A DNA stretch of 64,000 nt from a virus (lineage: Duplodnaviria; Heunggongvirae; Uroviricota; Caudoviricetes), in IMG/VR virus record IMGVR_UViG_2778261505_000002; one strand, 5' to 3'. A program made the translations under genes and the position numbers. The notes below the pieces were generated by a model. That model was not told the DNA's origin and searched no databases. It was given only the letters and a program-made list of their open reading frames with translations. Shown in pieces: positions 10,381-45,921 of this stretch. How positions within the stretch are numbered: the first letter of the stretch is position 1; every line of letters begins with the position of its first letter.

Positions 10381-10988
10381 TGTACGGAAGCAAGATATAT
10401 CGATCTGACGGGAAGGTCTGGATGTCTCCTTCTTTGTCTCCTATCGTTTTTCAGAGAAAGCAGGTTGTTTCTTTGTCCGGCGGAACAGAGTTTAACACCA
10501 AAATATCTCCAGATCGTTCACCGATTATTTTTGTTGCCTATTCGAAAGCTGTTTCATTAATAGCCAACAGAATAGTGCGTAACAACCAGGTGATTTACAG
10601 TTTCGGAGGTCAGGGTAGCGACTCTAGTGCCACGATATACGTATTTTCGAAAGGTATAGCCAAAAAAGAAACTTGGGGCATGAGTTTTTTCAATGCACAA
10701 GGGGAGGAAATCTATAATACGGCAAATATCCCACTTTCATTTACCTTTCTTAATAATACAGAGTGGAACAGCTCTGGAGGGCATGTTTTTGATTACCCTC
10801 CAGCGATAATCCCAACATATGCGAATGTGTTCGCTGTTCCAGTACCGGGCGGAGCCATGACAATGGTTTATGGATATGCGGCATATGGAAATACTGTTAG
10901 CTCGATATTCGTAAACCAACTTAATGGCGGCCATAGTTTTAGCGTAAATGGCAGAGTACCGGTAATAAATAGAAATCTGTATAACTGA
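10380..10988 (+). CDS. Hypothetical protein (tail-fibre-adjacent, possible fibre accessory or assembly protein)
   Basis: 202-aa ORF whose start abuts the upstream stop; Gly/Ser/Asn/Tyr-rich composition. Confidence 0.4.
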   Translation: MYGSKIYRSDGKVWMSPSLSPIVFQRKQVVSLSGGTEFNTKISPDRSPIIFVAYSKAVSLIANRIVRNNQVIYSFGGQGSDSSATIYVFSKGIAKKETWGMSFFNAQGEEIYNTANIPLSFTFLNNTEWNSSGGHVFDYPPAIIPTYANVFAVPVPGGAMTMVYGYAAYGNTVSSIFVNQLNGGHSFSVNGRVPVINRNLYN

Positions 10989-12760: not shown

Positions 12761-13282
12761 TTATTCTTCGAACAATTTTTCGATAGATTTTGTAGGATAG
12801 AACAAAGAACGCTCGTTGTTACCAACCAGCTGGATAAAGTCTAAACTTTTATAAAACGCCTTGGCTTTGTCATTTAACGCCTCAACGAAAAGTCCATGAA
12901 TGCCTACAGCAAGAGATGCATTGTACACAACGCGCATTGCATGTGTTACAAGCATTGAGCCAAATCCTTGACCTTGAAGGGACTTGTCCAAAGCCAGCCT
13001 ACCCAAAGTAACACTTGGAACATTCCGATAAGGTACCTTCTTTTGCTGGCTTCTTGAAGGTAAGGACTCCTTTTCAAAGCAGCTACCTGACAAAGTGTAA
13101 TACCCTAACACTTTTGGTCTGCCTTCTTTCGTGCAAAGCACATAAGCGCGAAGAATTTTTCCCTCATGCTGCCTTTTTAAGTGGTTGGTTAAAAAGGCAT
13201 TTAGTGATTCTTCACCGCAATCAAAACCATTCAAATCATAATCTTTCTCTCCAGAGAAAATTTCTATCTTTATATTATCCAC
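12761..13282 (-). CDS. GNAT-family acetyltransferase toxin (TacT/AtaT/KacT-like)
   Basis: GNAT fold motifs (QGQGFGSML, acetyl-CoA binding region); 173 aa; immediately downstream of a DUF1778-type RHH antitoxin gene. Confidence 0.8.
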   Translation of the reverse strand: MDNIKIEIFSGEKDYDLNGFDCGEESLNAFLTNHLKRQHEGKILRAYVLCTKEGRPKVLGYYTLSGSCFEKESLPSRSQQKKVPYRNVPSVTLGRLALDKSLQGQGFGSMLVTHAMRVVYNASLAVGIHGLFVEALNDKAKAFYKSLDFIQLVGNNERSLFYPTKSIEKLFEE

Positions 13283-13289
13283 GAGTAAA

Positions 13290-13559
13290 CTACTCCATGC
13301 TTTTCAGACGATCAGCAGCTCGTTTCAGCTTGTCGTTCGGTGCCGGAGGATTGCTTATAGCGTCCATAACCAGATTCCAGGATTCTTCATTCAGAACTAG
13401 TCTACGGTGTTGCTCTATAACTTTCACGGCACGTTCAGATGCACTGCTAACCATAAACTGAGTAATGCTCTGGTTAGACATTGCGGCAGCTTCCTCGATG
13501 ATGCTTTTATCGTCATCGGTTAATCTCAAATCGATGCGCTGCTTTTTTAGTGCTGACAT
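13290..13559 (-). CDS. RHH antitoxin (TacA/DUF1778-like) of the GNAT toxin
   Basis: About 90 aa; start set at the ATG preceded by AGGAGG (track ORF extends to 13598); operonic with and upstream of the GNAT gene. Confidence 0.75.
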   Translation of the reverse strand: MSALKKQRIDLRLTDDDKSIIEEAAAMSNQSITQFMVSSASERAVKVIEQHRRLVLNEESWNLVMDAISNPPAPNDKLKRAADRLKSME

Positions 13560-13877
13560 GTATTCCTCCTGATGGCCGTGATGTAGGAAGGCCATCAATC
13601 TCCTCTGTTCAAACTGAGTTTTCGACTCAAAAATTACTTTAAAAGGCTATAGCCCATTACGTGTGCATTATCAAATTGTGTACGGCATATCACCGTACTT
13701 GTAATATAGAGGTCATTGTTACTTTTTTCAACAGACAAATACAAGCTATGTTTGCCAATTGTTAATCACAACCTACCATTTAACCTTTACACCGCAGCCG
13801 TAGGCATTTAGGCTATATCACATATAAGAAAACAAGTTGTTTCAGACGATAATTATATACGCAAAGGGAACTCTCCA

Positions 13878-14546
13878 ATGACCAAGATCTTTGTGGTTGG
13901 CGGCACAAAGGGCGGGCCTGGCAAATCCACCGTTGCCCAGCAAATTGCCGTTTGCCTGAAAGTCAAAAAGAAGAAGAAGGTTTATATTACCGATATAGAT
14001 ATTCAGCGCACGACAACGAGCTGGTGTGAAGACCGTCGACAGAACGAAGACCTTGAGCTGATTCCTTTTGCATACGTTCAGGATGACATCATTAAGCACC
14101 TAAAATCGCTTCAGGGTAGAGCTGAGTTTGTAGTGGTAGATGCTGGTGGCTTCGACTCCGAAATTCAGCGACAAGCGATGCTGATGGCTGACGTTATCAT
14201 TATCCCGCTGCGTCCTAAGCGTCGTGATTTGAAATCTTTACGTGACATCGATCCTATTATCGACAATGTTCGCAATGTAAACGATAAAGTGAAGGTCCGC
14301 GCGGTCATGAACCAGTGCCCGGCTTTGCCATCACAAGTGTCTCGCATTCTGGCGGCTAAAGAGATTGTTGAGACGTTTGGAATCGAGTCTGCGCCAGTCA
14401 ATCTATATAACCGCAACGTCTATGATGATGCGGAAGAGTCTGGTCGTTCTATCTTTGAAATGACCGGTAGCGAGCGCGACAAAAAGGCGGAAGCCGAGTT
14501 TGAAGAATTTGTAGATTATCTGTTGAGTCTGGAGGAAGAAGAATAA
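13878..14546 (+). CDS. parA: ParA-family partition ATPase
   Basis: Deviant Walker A (GGTKGGPGKST); 222 aa; followed by a small basic ParB/ParG-like gene whose start overlaps the parA stop. Confidence 0.85.
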   Translation: MTKIFVVGGTKGGPGKSTVAQQIAVCLKVKKKKKVYITDIDIQRTTTSWCEDRRQNEDLELIPFAYVQDDIIKHLKSLQGRAEFVVVDAGGFDSEIQRQAMLMADVIIIPLRPKRRDLKSLRDIDPIIDNVRNVNDKVKVRAVMNQCPALPSQVSRILAAKEIVETFGIESAPVNLYNRNVYDDAEESGRSIFEMTGSERDKKAEAEFEEFVDYLLSLEEEE

Positions 14547-14905
14547 TGTCCATGAAAATGGGTGACCTAGCAAAGCGCAAAGAGCCTGATGCACCGGCTA
14601 AGAACACAACTCCTTTGCGCCAACCAGTCAGACCACAGGGACGCCCGACTCGTGGCAAAGAGAAAATTAAAAGCCGCACAATGTCACTGGAGGACGAATA
14701 CTTCGAACTGCTGGAGATGATGAAGTTCATCCCTCGCTTCGAGAAGTTCACTCGTTCTGACGTGATTCGAGCAGCCATTTTCCATCTGGCAGAGAAGTCA
14801 CCGCAGGAAATCGAGGACATCGTGAAATTGAATGAGGCGATCACCGCTGCCGATGTCACGATGCGTACCGATGAAATCAAACGAGAGTTGATGAAGAAAG
14901 GTTAA
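14546..14905 (+). CDS. Small centromere-binding partition protein (ParG/ParB-like, type Ib)
   Basis: 119 aa, basic N-terminal tail, operonic with parA (overlapping start/stop). Confidence 0.6.
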   Translation: MSMKMGDLAKRKEPDAPAKNTTPLRQPVRPQGRPTRGKEKIKSRTMSLEDEYFELLEMMKFIPRFEKFTRSDVIRAAIFHLAEKSPQEIEDIVKLNEAITAADVTMRTDEIKRELMKKG

Positions 14906-14910
14906 AAATC

Positions 14911-14941
14911 ATGCATTGGCGCGTACATTGCGCCAATGCAT
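14911..14941. terminator. 12-bp perfect hairpin between convergent genes (terminator or protein-binding site)
   Basis: ATGCATTGGCGC-GTACATT-GCGCCAATGCAT; a T-run follows on the minus strand. Confidence 0.5.
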
Positions 14942-14957
14942 AACTACAGTGTCAGCT

Positions 14958-15725
14958 TTATGCCGCGCTAACACTATGTTCAGTCCTAACCACCCCAACC
15001 TTCACAAAAGGGCTACCGTAGCTTGGTGGCTTCTTGATTAATTTGCCTACATACAGTTTTCTAATATGCTCATCGGCTATTCTGCCAACAAATTCATAAC
15101 GTTTTGTGTCGGGGCCAAGAGCTATATCCCTTGTAAAGTACTGCTGAGAACCGGCTTTGACCCAGCATTCAATCTGATAAACTTCCATTATCAGCCCACC
15201 ATATGTAGCGTAGGCATATTTGAGATTCTCGTCTCTTGGAACCTTTGCCCATACGCCACGCGTAGCTTCATATAATGCCAGAGCGGACATTCCTGACTTG
15301 TAGGTGCTGTTTAGCAGGAAGGCAAGACCGGCGTGCTCAGGAGCAATTTCAGTTTCCTCTTGCAGCACTAAGTGATGGTAGGCGTCTAGTGATATTCTGC
15401 CCATCATGGAACCACTTCCTCGTACCTTATTCGTAAGCTCTCCGACCCCCATAAGGTCGATGCATGTCGCCTCAACAAGTTTGGCTGTGGTTTCATCCAT
15501 ACCATGACGAAGTATATCTATGCCTAATTTTTTATTAGCCAAAAGTTCTTTGATCCGCATGGATTTGGGAGAGTCATCGGGATACTTGATGTGATCGAGA
15601 CAACGAGTCGATTTGCCTTTTCCTATGTAAAACGGTCTTTTCATCTTGTCTTCTGTATCATAGAGACAGTAAACATAGTATTTAGCCTTATCCAATGATC
15701 TCGCGTATACCGATAAATCGTCCAT
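14958..15725 (-). CDS. GIY-YIG nuclease-domain protein
   Basis: N-terminal YVYCLYD...PFYIGKGK motif (GIY-YIG); 255 aa; isolated on the minus strand. Confidence 0.6.
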   Translation of the reverse strand: MDDLSVYARSLDKAKYYVYCLYDTEDKMKRPFYIGKGKSTRCLDHIKYPDDSPKSMRIKELLANKKLGIDILRHGMDETTAKLVEATCIDLMGVGELTNKVRGSGSMMGRISLDAYHHLVLQEETEIAPEHAGLAFLLNSTYKSGMSALALYEATRGVWAKVPRDENLKYAYATYGGLIMEVYQIECWVKAGSQQYFTRDIALGPDTKRYEFVGRIADEHIRKLYVGKLIKKPPSYGSPFVKVGVVRTEHSVSAA

Positions 15726-15837
15726 TATTGCATCTCTTTGCTACTGACTAATGCGTTCTATTTTACACATAAGTTTTTAATCAATTTAACAGGCTCAAAG
15801 TGTAGAGCTTCTGGGCGTCTAAGACGACAAGTTATGC

Positions 15838-15892
15838 CTGCTTCCGTATATATAAATAATAAGTAACTTATTAAATATATACGGAAGCAGGT
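15838..15892. repeat. Large palindrome (17-bp inverted arms around an AT-rich palindromic core)
   Basis: CCTGCTTCCGTATATAT ... ATATATACGGAAGCAGG; a near-identical element recurs at 61770-61825. Confidence 0.7.
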
Positions 15893-25274: not shown

Positions 25275-26378
25275 ATGAAAAATAGCTTTGACAGAGCACG
25301 CGCTGCGGAGAACACCTCAAAAGAGGCGATTGAGTATCTCGAAAGAGCATCTCAAATGCAGGCCGTTATGATCTCGCAGGTTAGCAATGATATGAGATTC
25401 TCGGACGCATTCATGTTATTTACTCGCTTATCTCTGCTGATAACCAGACGTCGGCCAGAGATCGCTGTTCATTGTATTTTGATACATGTTTTGCCGCACA
25501 TTGCCGATGTAAAAGTAAGTGACATTAATAGGTTCATGGTGAACCAACTGGTCAACCCACTAATACTGGATGGCAAAATTGTTATGGGCCGCCGCGTTTT
25601 CTCTCTGATGAAGCAGTTCCTTAGCTGGTGCGCCTTCCAGGGGATGATAGACGTGTCACCGTTAAACGATATGTCACTTAACAAAGTTGCCGGTGGCGCA
25701 AAGCCCACACCTCGCGAGCGGAAGCTGACCGACGCAGAGGTATGGGTGTTCTGGAATATATGGGACTACTTCAATGTGTGCGCTGGTACAAAATGGGCGG
25801 CCAGGCTGTGTCTTGTATCCGCAAGACGACCTGACGAAGTACTGCGGGCTAAAAAAAGTGAGTTCAATCTTAAGCGTGGGGTTTGGAATCAAGGCAAGAG
25901 GAACAAATCTGCCCGTGAGCATTCGCTGCCTTTAAGCACATTAATGCGCACATGTATTGAAGAGTTGTTCGAATACGGTAAAGGCAGCCAGTGGCTCGTG
26001 CCTTCGAATAAAAAAATCGGGAAAGACCTTCCTATGTCTAAAGTGGCAATAGCCCAGGCATTACGTCGTATTCTGGAACGACCAGAACTGATGGAGCTTG
26101 AGCCATTTACACCCCGAGACTTGCGCCGTACTGCGCGTAGTTACTTCCCAGCATTAGGCATAAGCCAGGAGGTATCACGTAAAATCATGAACCACAGTCT
26201 TGAGGGGATAGATCGAGTCTACGACCGGCACGATTATATGGACGAGATGCGAGACGCCTTAGAAAGTTTCTCGACGTACATCGCATCAATCGTAGAGCAA
26301 CCGGATTTAGACGAAATTGACCACAAATTCAAGGGAGATCGTCTATCAACAGAGCTTATTCGTGTAAATTTTTCATAG
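25275..26378 (+). CDS. Tyrosine site-specific recombinase (integrase or resolvase)
   Basis: C-terminal catalytic-domain pattern (…RRPDEV…, FTPRDLRRTARSY, MNHSLEGIDRVYDRHDY) consistent with the R-H-R-Y signature. Confidence 0.7.
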   Translation: MKNSFDRARAAENTSKEAIEYLERASQMQAVMISQVSNDMRFSDAFMLFTRLSLLITRRRPEIAVHCILIHVLPHIADVKVSDINRFMVNQLVNPLILDGKIVMGRRVFSLMKQFLSWCAFQGMIDVSPLNDMSLNKVAGGAKPTPRERKLTDAEVWVFWNIWDYFNVCAGTKWAARLCLVSARRPDEVLRAKKSEFNLKRGVWNQGKRNKSAREHSLPLSTLMRTCIEELFEYGKGSQWLVPSNKKIGKDLPMSKVAIAQALRRILERPELMELEPFTPRDLRRTARSYFPALGISQEVSRKIMNHSLEGIDRVYDRHDYMDEMRDALESFSTYIASIVEQPDLDEIDHKFKGDRLSTELIRVNFS

Positions 26379-26759
26379 AGACTTTATGGCCTCAACAACC
26401 TTTTGTGATGCGCCTTTCTCTTTACCGAATCGCTCGTTATATGCAGCAAGAACCTGTTTTTCGTCCTCGTTAAGAGGAGCGGTGCCTTCTTTGTATAAAA
26501 ATGCTGCGAGTTCAGGTTGGCGTTCTTCCAGCACCATCATCATAAGACGACTTGGCTCAATACCCAGCGCCAGCGCCAACGGACGAACCTTATCGATAGG
26601 CAAAGGAATTTTGCCACTTTTAATTAAAGAAAGGTTGTTGGCATTTTTATAACCAATAAGTCTGGCTATTTGGGCCTGACTCATAGGTGAGGATTCAATC
26701 AGCCCTGCGATAAAAGCAGCATAGCGACTTTCTATAAATTCAATCTTGTTGTCAGACAT
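26373..26759 (-). CDS. XRE-family helix-turn-helix transcriptional regulator
   Basis: HTH segment (MSQAQIARLIGYKNANNLSLIKSGK); start set at internal ATG (track ORF extends to 26789); divergent from the downstream AT-rich region. Confidence 0.65.
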   Translation of the reverse strand: MSDNKIEFIESRYAAFIAGLIESSPMSQAQIARLIGYKNANNLSLIKSGKIPLPIDKVRPLALALGIEPSRLMMMVLEERQPELAAFLYKEGTAPLNEDEKQVLAAYNERFGKEKGASQKVVEAIKSL

Positions 26760-27010
26760 TGTTACAACCTTTGCGCGTTCAATTCTCACTGGTAAGTGCT
26801 TACCGATATTACATCAAAGGTTAGGGTTGTAAAGCTATTATCATTTTTTTCGATAGGCACTTAAAAGACCGGTTAAAGGCCATTGCACGGAGAAAAATTA
26901 GCCCAAAACAGGTAAGAAAATTAACTTGTATATGATATGAATGTATTCAGTATTGATATAAATTTTAGTAGTATTCCTTACCATAGTATAAGTTAGAATG
27001 GATTGATTGA

Positions 27011-44125: not shown

Positions 44126-44172
44126 ATGCAAACTGACTGCGGAACGTGCCGCAGTCATATTTCATAGTCGTC

Positions 44173-44705
44173 ACCGCTGACAGCATACACAATCAACTAC
44201 CGCTGATAGCATATCGAGAGTCTATCTCACCGCTCACAGCATACATTACTCGATTTTTTACCGCTGACAGCATACTTAAGAAATTGCATGAATAATGTGT
44301 CCCGGTATGGGTATAACCAGAACAAAATTACCGCTGGCAGCATACGAATGTCTGACATATACCATTAATTACCGCTGATAGCATATCCAAACAAAAATTC
44401 CTCAATAAAACACCGCTGACAGCATACATTCTATCAGAGAGTAGCAGGCAATAAATGCCTTTCACTACAAGCAATCAGCGCAATAGCAATAGAATGTTAG
44501 TGAGCGCAAACCTATATGGAATGCACTCTTCGAGGTTAGTAACCACTGGGGAGGTATGACAGAGCATTGAGTGGTGATAGATGATTTACCGCTCACAGCA
44601 TACGTTCATCTCACTATACCGCTGGTAGCATATCTTTAACCGTTCACAGCATACTTTTCAGAAAAATAGCCGCTGATAGCATACATTTCACCGCTGACAG
44701 CATAT
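44173..44705. repeat. Iteron array downstream of repA (incA-like), about 12 copies of a 16-bp repeat
   Basis: ACCGCTGACAGCATAC and close variants at about 44173, 44199, 44228, 44259, 44329, 44370, 44411, 44587, 44618, 44639, 44668, 44690; variable spacing; ends at the rep stop codon. Confidence 0.85.
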
Positions 44706-45799
44706 CAAAGCAGTTTGAGACTATTGGAAAGGATCTCAATCATCTTGATATTTTCAGGCGTCAAATTCTGCGAAAGTTCGGTTATCTTGTTGATAATGTT
44801 CTGTTTGGCATCAATTTCCCCAGCTTTCTCATCTGGTTTTTTGGGTTCGATGTCTTCAGGTTTTGGCGGTGCGACTTTGAGTTTTGGATTGCGGCTGTGA
44901 ATCTGGATATAGATCGACCGCCCACGCTTAATCTCGCTGTATTCGAGATAGCCCAAATCTTGGAGAGCTTTTAAGCCGTTACGTATAGTCTGATTCTGCG
45001 AGCTGACATTCCTGCTACTCAAATTGAGTCGCGCACGCAATCGAGCAAGCGATACCGGCGCAGGCTTGGTTGGAAGACTTTCGATGAAGGTGTACAGAGC
45101 CTGTGCTGTTTCTTTGCGTGGTAGCTTATTGATAACCTTTAACTGCAAAAGAACCTTATGGTCAAAGCGATATAGTTCGGCCAGCTTCGGTTCTGCATAG
45201 AACACCACCGTATCTTTCTGCTCGTTGTAGTCCACGCTATTGATGAGGTGCACCATCAGAAGCGAGATCTTGTTAGAGCCGTCGACGTTCTTTTCTTCAT
45301 ACGTTCTCTGGAAAGACAGAGTTGTACGCATGATCTTCAAAAGACTGTTTGTAAGCCGGTCGCGGAGTGTTTTGCGGATCTGTGACGATGGATAGCCACA
45401 AAACTTAGCAAATTTCGTGATACTTAACTCGACACGACCGTTAGGTTCGCCGTATTCTGCCAGCGAACGCACAACGCCCACCCACGTTTTGAAATCATGA
45501 TCCATGTCGAGACGAGGACCGGTTATCTTGATATCGGAATAGCCTTCAGAACGGGCTACTTCGAGCTGGACAAGCTCCTTTGAAGCATCGATCTCATTTG
45601 GCTTGTTACGTTTACTGTATTTTGTTCCCTTAAGCGTGGGGACGAACAACCCCAGTCGCATCAACGCAATTGGTTGGACTGTATTGTTGCTATTAGGGAC
45701 AAGTTCCCCTGTGTACAATTCAAGGGAACCTTCTTCAAAGTTGTCGATGTTATCTTCTACTTCTTTGTTATTTTTACCTTTTTTATTTTTTGTGGACAT
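44705..45799 (-). CDS. repA: Plasmid-type replication initiator (RepA-like, iteron-binding)
   Basis: Flanked on both sides by arrays of the same 16-bp iteron; start set at ATG after AAAGG RBS (track ORF extends to 45919 across the upstream iterons); basic protein of RepA-like size. Confidence 0.7.
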   Translation of the reverse strand: MSTKNKKGKNNKEVEDNIDNFEEGSLELYTGELVPNSNNTVQPIALMRLGLFVPTLKGTKYSKRNKPNEIDASKELVQLEVARSEGYSDIKITGPRLDMDHDFKTWVGVVRSLAEYGEPNGRVELSITKFAKFCGYPSSQIRKTLRDRLTNSLLKIMRTTLSFQRTYEEKNVDGSNKISLLMVHLINSVDYNEQKDTVVFYAEPKLAELYRFDHKVLLQLKVINKLPRKETAQALYTFIESLPTKPAPVSLARLRARLNLSSRNVSSQNQTIRNGLKALQDLGYLEYSEIKRGRSIYIQIHSRNPKLKVAPPKPEDIEPKKPDEKAGEIDAKQNIINKITELSQNLTPENIKMIEILSNSLKLL

Positions 45800-45819
45800 G
45801 TGGACACCTTTGTCATTCA

Positions 45820-45921
45820 ACCGCTGACAGCATACTTGATTTGCCGCTGACAGAATACCAAAAACAGTTGGCAGCATACGGTGAACCGCTGACAGACTAT
45901 CAATTACCGCTGACAGCATAC
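45820..45921. repeat. Iteron array upstream of repA (incC/origin-like), 5 copies at ~21-23 bp spacing
   Basis: ACCGCTGACAGCATAC-type repeats at 45820, 45843, ~45864, 45885, 45906, overlapping the presumed rep promoter. Confidence 0.85.

Follow-up and report, generated by a model that had tools for sequence, protein, structure and literature searches.

Positions 13,878 to 14,941 of the window, by which we mean the whole 64,000-nucleotide stretch of IMG/VR virus record IMGVR_UViG_2778261505_000002 analyzed here, contain a parA gene, a small gene directly downstream of it, and a perfect 12-bp hairpin. We consider it probable that this region is the plasmid-partition (par) operon of an SSU5-family phage-plasmid and that the hairpin is the terminator of a neighboring gene. 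In the model we favor, a sigma-70-type promoter at 13786-13814 would drive a bicistronic, translationally coupled message. The first product would be a small ParF-like ParA ATPase, and the second a 119-amino-acid (aa) partner that would combine a basic, disordered tail bearing the peptide MGDLAK[RK] with a central ribbon-helix-helix dimer. Type Ib systems suggest by analogy that the partner would bind both a centromere and the par promoter and that nucleoid-bound ParA-ATP would move or space the roughly 5 plasmid copies. The fold of the partner, its contacts with DNA and with ParA, and the location of the centromere are the parts of this model that we infer.

The model is built on gene identities, translational coupling, deep co-conservation, constraint on the promoter, and transcription during lysogeny in a 98%-identical relative. 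Over the 1.4 kb around par, the window is 100% identical to Escherichia coli plasmid p4_0.2 (NZ_CP023851.1). The par region is 98-99.9% identical in other E. coli and E. albertii plasmids and in phages CMS-2020a, Cyrano, and PhiR41_1, and 80-87% identical in Salmonella phage SSU5 and in phage-plasmids of Klebsiella, Enterobacter, Citrobacter, and Cronobacter. Because of this 80-100% identity to p4_0.2, SSU5, Cyrano, and the Klebsiella phage-plasmids, we assign the window, on sequence grounds, to an SSU5/pHCM2-family phage-plasmid of E. coli, a replicon of 110 kb. The conserved par cassette is bounded by 13771 and 14905 and is carried by about 750 plasmid records. The gene order is tail fiber, lysis, a toxin-antitoxin module in some lineages, parA and the small open reading frame (ORF), a GIY-YIG gene in some lineages, ORF249, dnaB, primase, and ligase. 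In what follows, L011 is phage Cyrano, L013 is the rest of NZ_CP023851.1, outside the window, and L014, L015, L016, L019, L023, and L024 are more distant relatives compared at par.

Co-inheritance and expression of the par genes

In every lineage examined, ParA (221-229 aa) and the small partner are inherited together, adjacent and in the same synteny (tail fiber, lysis, par, dnaB). That they are co-inherited despite a partner identity of just 26-67% argues, at the level of sequence, for a two-component machine. A search for SSU5 relatives having dnaB and lacking the par pair found none, the sets of records for the two being nearly the same.

Phage Cyrano of E. coli LF82, 98% identical to the window at par, is SOS-inducible and has a copy number of 5.5. 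The transcriptome of the LF82/Cyrano lysogen gives values of 49.8 for ParA, 89.1 for the small ORF, 54.6 for the next gene, 6.2 for the following replication-module gene, and 95.8 for the putative master repressor (PMC9928086, S1 table). Transcription of both ParA and its partner in this lysogen, where the two are co-transcribed at comparable levels, means that the par operon is active in the plasmid state, as it would have to be for partition.

The ParA ATPase

The parA gene is already annotated as such in many records. Its product has the deviant Walker A motif GGTKGGPGKST at residues 8-18 (pattern xKGGxxK[ST]) and the Walker B motif FVVVD at residue 84. It matches the Pfam families MipZ, AAA_31, CbiA, and ParA, phrog_164 "ParA-like partition protein" (E = 4e-51), and NCBIfam ParA_partition (E = 1.9e-33; 115.7 bits, under the equivalog cutoff of 180). 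The top relatives of solved structure are TP228 ParF (4dzz) and the TP228 ParA-ParB complex (5u1g), both at E = 1.2e-10, with residues 9-199 aligning with ParF residues 8-189 over nearly the full length; MipZ and Soj are the next-best solved structures. A protein of this small size, with Walker A beginning at residue 8, lacks the N-terminal helix-turn-helix (HTH)/regulatory domain of type Ia ParAs, and by these sequence features it is type Ib-like.

The small partner protein

The stop codon of parA overlaps the start codon of the partner gene in the sequence TAATG; the RefSeq start is the next ATG, at 14552, which gives 117 aa. The protein has an overall isoelectric point (pI) of 9.56 and is strongly polarized, residues 1-47 having a pI of 11.4 and residues 48-119 a pI of 5.0. 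It is annotated as hypothetical nearly everywhere, matches no Pfam family, and belongs to phrog_5111 (E = 4.5e-80), whose function is listed as unknown. The family is narrow: a search of 5.8 billion proteins returned 25 clusters, a family profile search of 1.84 billion representatives returned 18, and all located homologues adjoin a ParA gene in SSU5-like contigs.

Aligned partners share an N-terminal motif M-G-D-L-A-K-[KR] (variants FGGLGKK and MAGLAKQ); a variable linker separates it from a conserved basic stretch RPQGRPTRGK and an invariant core I-K-S-R-T-x-S-x-E-[DE]-E ... [FL]-[TS]-R-S-D-V-x-R-A-A. ParB, Spo0J, and ParG activate their cognate ParA ATPases through Lys/Arg-containing N-terminal peptides, which the G-x-L-x-K-[KR] peptide of the partner resembles, and by this analogy the N-terminal peptide may be a ParA-ATPase-activating motif. 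The core has a ribbon-helix-helix-like pattern, with a strand of alternating hydrophobic residues, a helix A, a T/S-R-S N-cap, and a helix B. Exactly where the strand-helix-helix is predicted, two homologues align with positions 3-36 of the 39 in Pfam RHH_1, at sub-threshold E values of 0.0053 and 0.11, and the match of the window protein to the ribbon-helix-helix protein aCcr1 (E = 2.3e-4) is counted among this sub-threshold support. An AlphaFold monomer model (mean predicted local distance difference test score [pLDDT], 67) leaves residues 1-47 disordered or extended and places helices at 48-59, 70-82, 86-97, and 101-118. Structure comparison of the monomer model gave no match, as is expected for an obligate intertwined dimer. 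The center of the protein, approximately residues 40-82, would be a ribbon-helix-helix DNA-binding dimer with two helices after it; the sub-threshold profile matches suggest this fold, which the monomer model does not back and which we regard as unproven.

These results bear on most of what the first-pass annotation had proposed for the genes themselves. Its deviant Walker A ParA at 13878 and its small, basic 119-aa partner in the same operon are both borne out, the latter by the pI, the TAATG overlap, and co-inheritance; its type Ib-style reading gains support from the TP228 relatives of ParA and from the coupled, co-inherited partner. The description of that partner as ParG-like holds as an analogy and fails as a family assignment. 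Nothing matched Pfam ParG (PF09274) at E ≤ 0.1 or at E ≤ 5, and hhalign comparison of the family profile with ParG (whose sequence was checked against 1p94) gave a probability of 0.1%. Searches of Pfam and NCBIfam likewise found no ParB/Srx N-terminal domain or HTH in the partner.

A different reading would take the pair out of DNA partition altogether, with the small ORF either a toxin or a mere adaptor and a ParB/Srx protein the real centromere binder. It draws on the annotation of the Cyrano partner as a toxin, on two genes with ParB N-terminal domains elsewhere on the plasmid, and on a partner whose DNA-binding fold is not proven. We judge it very unlikely. No RelE/ParE or other toxin family is matched, and translational coupling and constant co-inheritance tie the partner to ParA; the ParB/Srx genes lie about 30 kb off in the packaging module beside terminase, unpaired with ParA. 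Moreover, small ParF-type ParAs work with small partners encoded immediately downstream, as in TP228 parFGH and pB171 par2.

In Cyrano the partner is CYRAN_29 (L011 2447-2806), annotated "RelE/ParE putative toxin," and it is also listed there as a moron (PMC9928086). Since Pfam, NCBIfam, PHROGs, and PADLOC yielded no similarity to RelE/ParE or any other toxin family, the toxin annotation is probably wrong. As for the ParB/Srx genes, two adjacent members together with a gene for an ABC-ATPase domain adjoin the terminase genes, not paired with the ParA studied here (L013 18469-19817, corresponding to NZ_CP023851.1 65666-67014); they are possibly what some surveys call the SSU5 "parB."

Constraint at the par promoter

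The predicted sigma-70-type promoter reads TTTACA-N17-TAGGCT. Of 11 lineages, 8 have the pattern TT[TG]AC[AC]-N17-TAnnnT at the corresponding site, the distant L014 and L016 among them, and it is also found in L023. Among the variants, L016 has TAGTAT as its -10 hexamer, and plasmid pCAV1099-111 and L024 have TTGACC-N17-TAACAT. The segment covering the spacer and -10 hexamer, GCCGTAGGCATTTAGGCTATA, contains two copies of TAGGC 8 bp apart.

Constraint was compared among 58 unique sequences that are 76-100% identical in parA; smaller earlier comparisons gave the same picture. Only 22 of the 75 upstream columns (13771-13845) vary, against 194 of 222 third-codon positions (87%) and 51 of 222 first-codon positions in parA. 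The invariant bases are the -35 hexamer, GC.GT.GGCATTTAGGCTATA in the spacer and -10 hexamer, and CATATAAGAAAACAA.TTGTTTCA; bases upstream of the -35 hexamer vary. The promoter region is the most constrained noncoding DNA at par, and we infer only that 13797-13817 is a candidate autoregulatory operator or centromere core to which the partner could bind.

Two broader interpretations of this DNA were set aside or weakened. An 8-bp periodic array of "ACC/GGC boxes" in 13772-13815 was dropped, since k-mers were not enriched over shuffles and the boxes 5' of the -35 hexamer are variable. The case for treating all 100 bp upstream as specific to par was weakened: the invariant bases there come down to the -35 hexamer, the -10 hexamer with part of the spacer, and a plasmid-wide motif, and the spacer of L023 is different.

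The hairpin and the convergent GIY-YIG gene

The first-pass annotation had also described a perfect 12-bp inverted repeat at 14911-14941 and proposed that either it is the terminator of the convergent GIY-YIG gene or the centromere is elsewhere, for example at the large palindromes or the recurring motifs; the repeat is indeed perfect, and the evidence favors a terminator, with the centromere elsewhere. The arms ATGCATTGGCGC (14911-14922) and GCGCCAATGCAT (14930-14941) are 12 nucleotides (nt) each, 100% complementary, and separated by a 7-nt loop. Folded as minus-strand RNA the hairpin has a free energy of -25.1 kcal/mol (z = -5.1; 0 of 200 shuffles as good), and as plus-strand RNA -22.3 kcal/mol (z = -3.7). 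On the minus strand it is followed by GATTTTTAACC, with the U-tract GAUUUUUAA; the plus strand has no T-run. The hairpin begins 16 nt past the stop codon of the GIY-YIG gene and 6 nt past that of the partner gene.

Alignment of the downstream region shows that homology among the relatives ends at the partner stop codon (14903-14905). Beyond it, SSU5 and pJN2-26 run directly into another gene; a canonical terminator, not the same one in any two cases, follows in the Cronobacter, Enterobacter, and Citrobacter relatives, Cyrano, L023, L014, L015, and L019; and pSTM_Phi and L024 pass straight into a large palindrome. Database matches run on through the hairpin in just those records in which the convergent GIY-YIG gene is also present. 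In two of these, pRHB27-C06_3 and pLR-62-2_1 (86% identical), the arms are identical and the loop is exactly reverse complemented, reading AATGTAC instead of GTACATT, a difference best read from the sequences as a flip between the inverted arms that leaves the structure unchanged (loop at window 14923-14929; regions compared, L020 8111-8196 and L021 8285-8370).

The gene and hairpin together make up about 930 bp of inserted DNA (14906-15835) that separates the par operon from the large palindrome and is absent at this place from SSU5, pSTM_Phi, and the Klebsiella and Enterobacter relatives. The protein matches Pfam LEM-3_GIY-YIG (E = 5.5e-7) and, over residues 11-231 of 255, the PADLOC model PD-T4-3 (PDLC04031; E = 1.3e-23), making it a putative PD-T4-3-like antiphage defense gene. 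It resembles PD-T4-3, a single-gene GIY-YIG antiphage defense, in its near-full-length match to the model and has its own hairpin terminator; its defense role is predicted from the profile match. Its position outside the par cassette, its linkage to the GIY-YIG gene, and a T-run on the strand of that gene lead us to read the hairpin as the intrinsic terminator of the inserted defense gene and not as part of the par system. Being located where other lineages have a par terminator, it may incidentally also stop par transcription.

That the hairpin might itself be a centromere or operator bound by the partner is suggested by its perfect symmetry and its position 6 nt past the partner stop codon. 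We rejected it as a centromere and give this possibility a negligible chance: the hairpin is missing from SSU5, pSTM_Phi, Cyrano, and the Klebsiella, Enterobacter, Citrobacter, and Cronobacter relatives that have the same par genes, is present only with the GIY-YIG gene, and has a loop that is free to invert.

Location of the centromere

Several observations weigh against our interpretation of the operon. No iterated centromere-like repeats occur upstream, downstream, or elsewhere on the plasmid save for the rep iterons and repeats within coding sequence, and a missing repeat-array centromere is atypical for type Ib systems. The promoter hexamers, together with a palindrome not specific to par, account for most of the constrained upstream bases, and the promoter spacer differs in the distant lineage L023. 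The literature on partition in SSU5 and pHCM2 yielded annotations only, with no stability, binding, or localization experiment found. Finally, a consensus terminator scan did not flag the hairpin, whose stem base is AT rich and whose T-run starts 2 nt past the stem, probably because extension of the stem consumes part of the T-run.

That repeats are not obvious upstream of parA had been remarked in the first-pass annotation, and the closer search agrees with it. We found no tandem repeat arrays upstream of parA, and k-mers (k = 4-7) in 13765-13877 were not over-represented relative to dinucleotide shuffles, 0.19-0.95 of which equaled or exceeded the observed counts. The plasmid does have about 20 iterons (ACCGCTGACAGCATA) in two clusters at 44167-45920 that flank a gene for a Rep3-type initiator (44705-45919, minus strand; PF01051, E = 5e-9), 30 kb from par; this layout is that of a P1-like oriR/incA arrangement.

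Our best guess for the centromere is the constrained spacer/-10/+1 region, 13797-13842, which moves with the cassette. Because the spacer is different in L023, its constraint appears to be lineage specific, as would fit a protein-binding site co-evolving with its protein, though this is not proof. The second candidate in order is a dispersed 16-bp motif and the third a family of 56-bp palindromes.

The 16-bp motif is the palindrome AGAAAACAAnTTGTTT, found at about 18 promoters of the phage-plasmid, and the copy at par is AGAAAACAAGTTGTTT. Allowing up to 2 mismatches, AGAAAACAAGTTGTTT has 7 matches in the window (0.39 expected), amounting to five gene-proximal sites and one likely chance match at 10455. 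The five sites (13827, 16757, 27287, 39701, and 54012) precede parA, dnaB, a cobT-like gene, ORF 39733, and nrdB. The remaining 46 kb of the same plasmid has 21 matches at about 13 sites (0.25 expected), and a tandem pair lies ahead of the terminase module. Where the downstream gene is annotated, a site has the same orientation as that gene, lies 10-50 nt before the start codon, and follows a GATAAT-like hexamer by about 10-12 nt. Because of this co-orientation and spacing to start codons and hexamers, the motif reads as a plasmid-wide operator or promoter element of the +1 region. With some 18 copies on the plasmid, the palindrome at 13827-13842 was rejected as a par-specific operator.

The partner might nonetheless bind this motif at par and at about 17 other promoters, acting as both centromere binder and global regulator. 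We think this unlikely, and the evidence divides as follows. AGAAAACAAnTTGTTT is the only par-promoter palindrome conserved across the main, pCAV/Kqq, L016, and L023 lineages, being kept in the latter three at both the par and dnaB promoters; it is strongly over-represented and always promoter proximal, and with no local repeat array there is room for a dispersed centromere. The motif is absent from the integrase/repressor (immunity) region, which carries GGTAAGTGCTTACC, and so a CI-like repressor is probably not its binder. Conversely, at the par promoter of L014, L015, L019, and L024 the motif has degenerated or disappeared even though the predicted DNA-reading strand of the partner (SRTxS) is conserved, and a promoter or operator element would account better than a centromere for the fixed orientation of the motif and its distance to -10 hexamers and start codons. 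The par operon of Cyrano is expressed while the motif-bearing CYRAN_47 is at background, so the motif sites are not one regulon in lysogeny.

AGAAAACAAnTTGTTT as the operator of a CI-like repressor was likewise not supported, the repressor/integrase region instead carrying GGTAAGTGCTTACC and similar half-sites, which belong to a different motif, the recurring palindrome ATAAGTAnnTACTTAT. This palindrome has 27 matches (2.3 expected), at 26790-26803 and about 20 other sites (e.g., 15976, 22932, 38555, 51572, and 56289). The GGTAAGTGCTTACC half-sites adjoin an XRE-type repressor gene (26373-26789, minus strand) and an integrase gene (25275-26378), and ATAAGTAnnTACTTAT is probably the operator of the master repressor. 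It often precedes the first gene of a module, and AGAAAACAAnTTGTTT the second.

The third candidate is a 56-bp AT-rich palindrome with GC clamps, GCCTGCTTCCGTATATATAAATAATAAGTAACTTATTAAATATATACGGAAGCAGG, present in three near-identical copies on the plasmid (15836-15891, 61771-61826, and about L013 16560-16613). Palindromes of this kind lie at module boundaries, in 3-6 places per genome in every SSU5-like phage, and one directly follows the par operon in pSTM_Phi, L024, pCAV1099-111, and L016, in longer, split versions in the last two. As a family they could form a centromere dispersed like that of phage-plasmid N15, whose Sop centromere sites are four dispersed inverted repeats. Their three near-identical copies per genome, their presence in all SSU5-like phages, and the copy immediately downstream of par in lineages with no GIY-YIG insertion all fit this idea, which we rate as distinctly unlikely. 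The common core TTATTAAATATATAC is conserved regardless of how far the partner has diverged; the center carries an ATAAGTA-type motif that is also found in the immunity region, which points to a repressor or promoter function; and the best SSU5 copy comes after the next gene and does not adjoin par. A role as module-boundary terminators or as an origin would suit the palindromes just as well, and we treat terminator, origin, and centromere as all possible.

There is thus an outside chance that the SSU5 family does without a classical repeat-array centromere and that its orphan partner binds dispersed palindromes, either the approximately 18 copies of AGAAAACAAnTTGTTT or the three 56-bp copies. 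If so, one small protein would link partition to phage gene expression, as with KorB, omega, and N15 Sop, but the components here would be a type Ib ParA and a member of a new protein family.

Relation to known partition systems

The probably conventional biology that we favor for the par operon is best seen beside TP228 parFGH (ParF, ParG, and parH), which likewise has a small ParA with no N-terminal DNA-binding extension. As in TP228, the window partner is encoded directly downstream and has a flexible basic N-terminal tail and a putative ribbon-helix-helix core, and the promoter-proximal region is the most constrained noncoding DNA. Unlike ParG, the partner has no detectable similarity to that family, is 119 rather than 76 aa long, and has two extra C-terminal helices; unlike parH, the window has no upstream array of short repeats, and the host replicon is a 110-kb phage-plasmid. 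The type Ib features found or plausible here are the type and small size of ParA, the coupled small partner, and the flexible basic tail. By sequence and by analogy, the operon would work like a type Ib system as a sequence-orphan member, not as a member of the ParG family.

In sharing a palindromic operator between the par promoter and about 17 other promoters, the window resembles pSM19035 delta/omega and RK2 IncC/KorB. It differs from them in that several lineages lack the motif at the par promoter yet retain the partner, which is only a putative binder; the large KorB belongs to the ParB family of HTH proteins, and the sites of omega are heptad arrays rather than a single palindrome. P1 ParABS and N15 SopAB are alike in role, which for the window is assigned by analogy, namely the keeping of a low-copy plasmid prophage. 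Those are type Ia systems with a large ParA bearing an N-terminal domain and with a ParB/SopB HTH protein, whereas the window has a type Ib-like pair in which the partner is an orphan.

Phage-plasmids of the SSU5/pHCM2 type occur commonly in clinical E. coli, Salmonella Typhi, Shigella, Klebsiella, and Enterobacter, and some carry resistance genes; their stable inheritance is here attributed to the predicted par operon. Placing the limits of the cassette at 13771-14905 makes the conspicuous hairpin irrelevant to partition, narrows the constrained cis-acting DNA to about 60 bp, and provides a concrete construct for stability, incompatibility, and binding experiments.

Features of the par region and its neighborhood

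The coordinates of the features discussed above are collected in Table 1.

Table 1. Features at and around the par operon, in window coordinates
Feature	Position	Strand	Basis and reading
Predicted -35 hexamer, TTTACA	13786-13791	+	At the equivalent place in 8/11 lineages; invariant in 58 unique sequences
Promoter spacer and -10 hexamer (TAGGCT, 13809-13814), GCCGTAGGCATTTAGGCTATA	13797-13817	+	Near-invariant in the main lineage
Palindromic motif, AGAAAACAAGTTGTTT	13827-13842	+	12 nt 3' of the -10 hexamer; copy of a putative plasmid-wide promoter-proximal operator
parA	13878-14546	+	222 aa; small deviant Walker A partition ATPase, from Pfam, NCBIfam, PHROG, and PDB matches and motifs
Partner gene	14546-14905	+	119 aa; presumed centromere-binding, ParA-activating protein; phrog_5111, coupled to parA
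Perfect hairpin, 12-bp stem and 7-nt loop	14911-14941	-	Predicted intrinsic terminator of the convergent GIY-YIG (PD-T4-3-like) gene
GIY-YIG gene	14958-15725	-	Accessory cassette, convergent to par; not part of the par system
56-bp AT-rich palindrome with GC clamps, GCCTGCTTCCGTATATATAAATAATAAGTAACTTATTAAATATATACGGAAGCAGG	15836-15891	.	Unproven alternative centromere candidate

Directly upstream of the par promoter, at 12761-13598 on the minus strand, lie genes for a TacA-like antitoxin (PF08681, E = 8.6e-26) and a GNAT acetyltransferase toxin of the KacT/TacT type. Like the GIY-YIG gene, this toxin-antitoxin module is an accessory cassette found in some lineages only, and it is strongly transcribed in Cyrano lysogens. 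The distant metagenomic relative L019 has, about 180 bp upstream of parA (at approximately 1480-1550), a tRNA-like 3' half ending in …GGTTCGAGTCCCGCTGCCTGCTCCA. Outside the window, the early region of the plasmid includes metG and apbC (mrp) at L013 30725-34016, apparently captured chromosomal genes.

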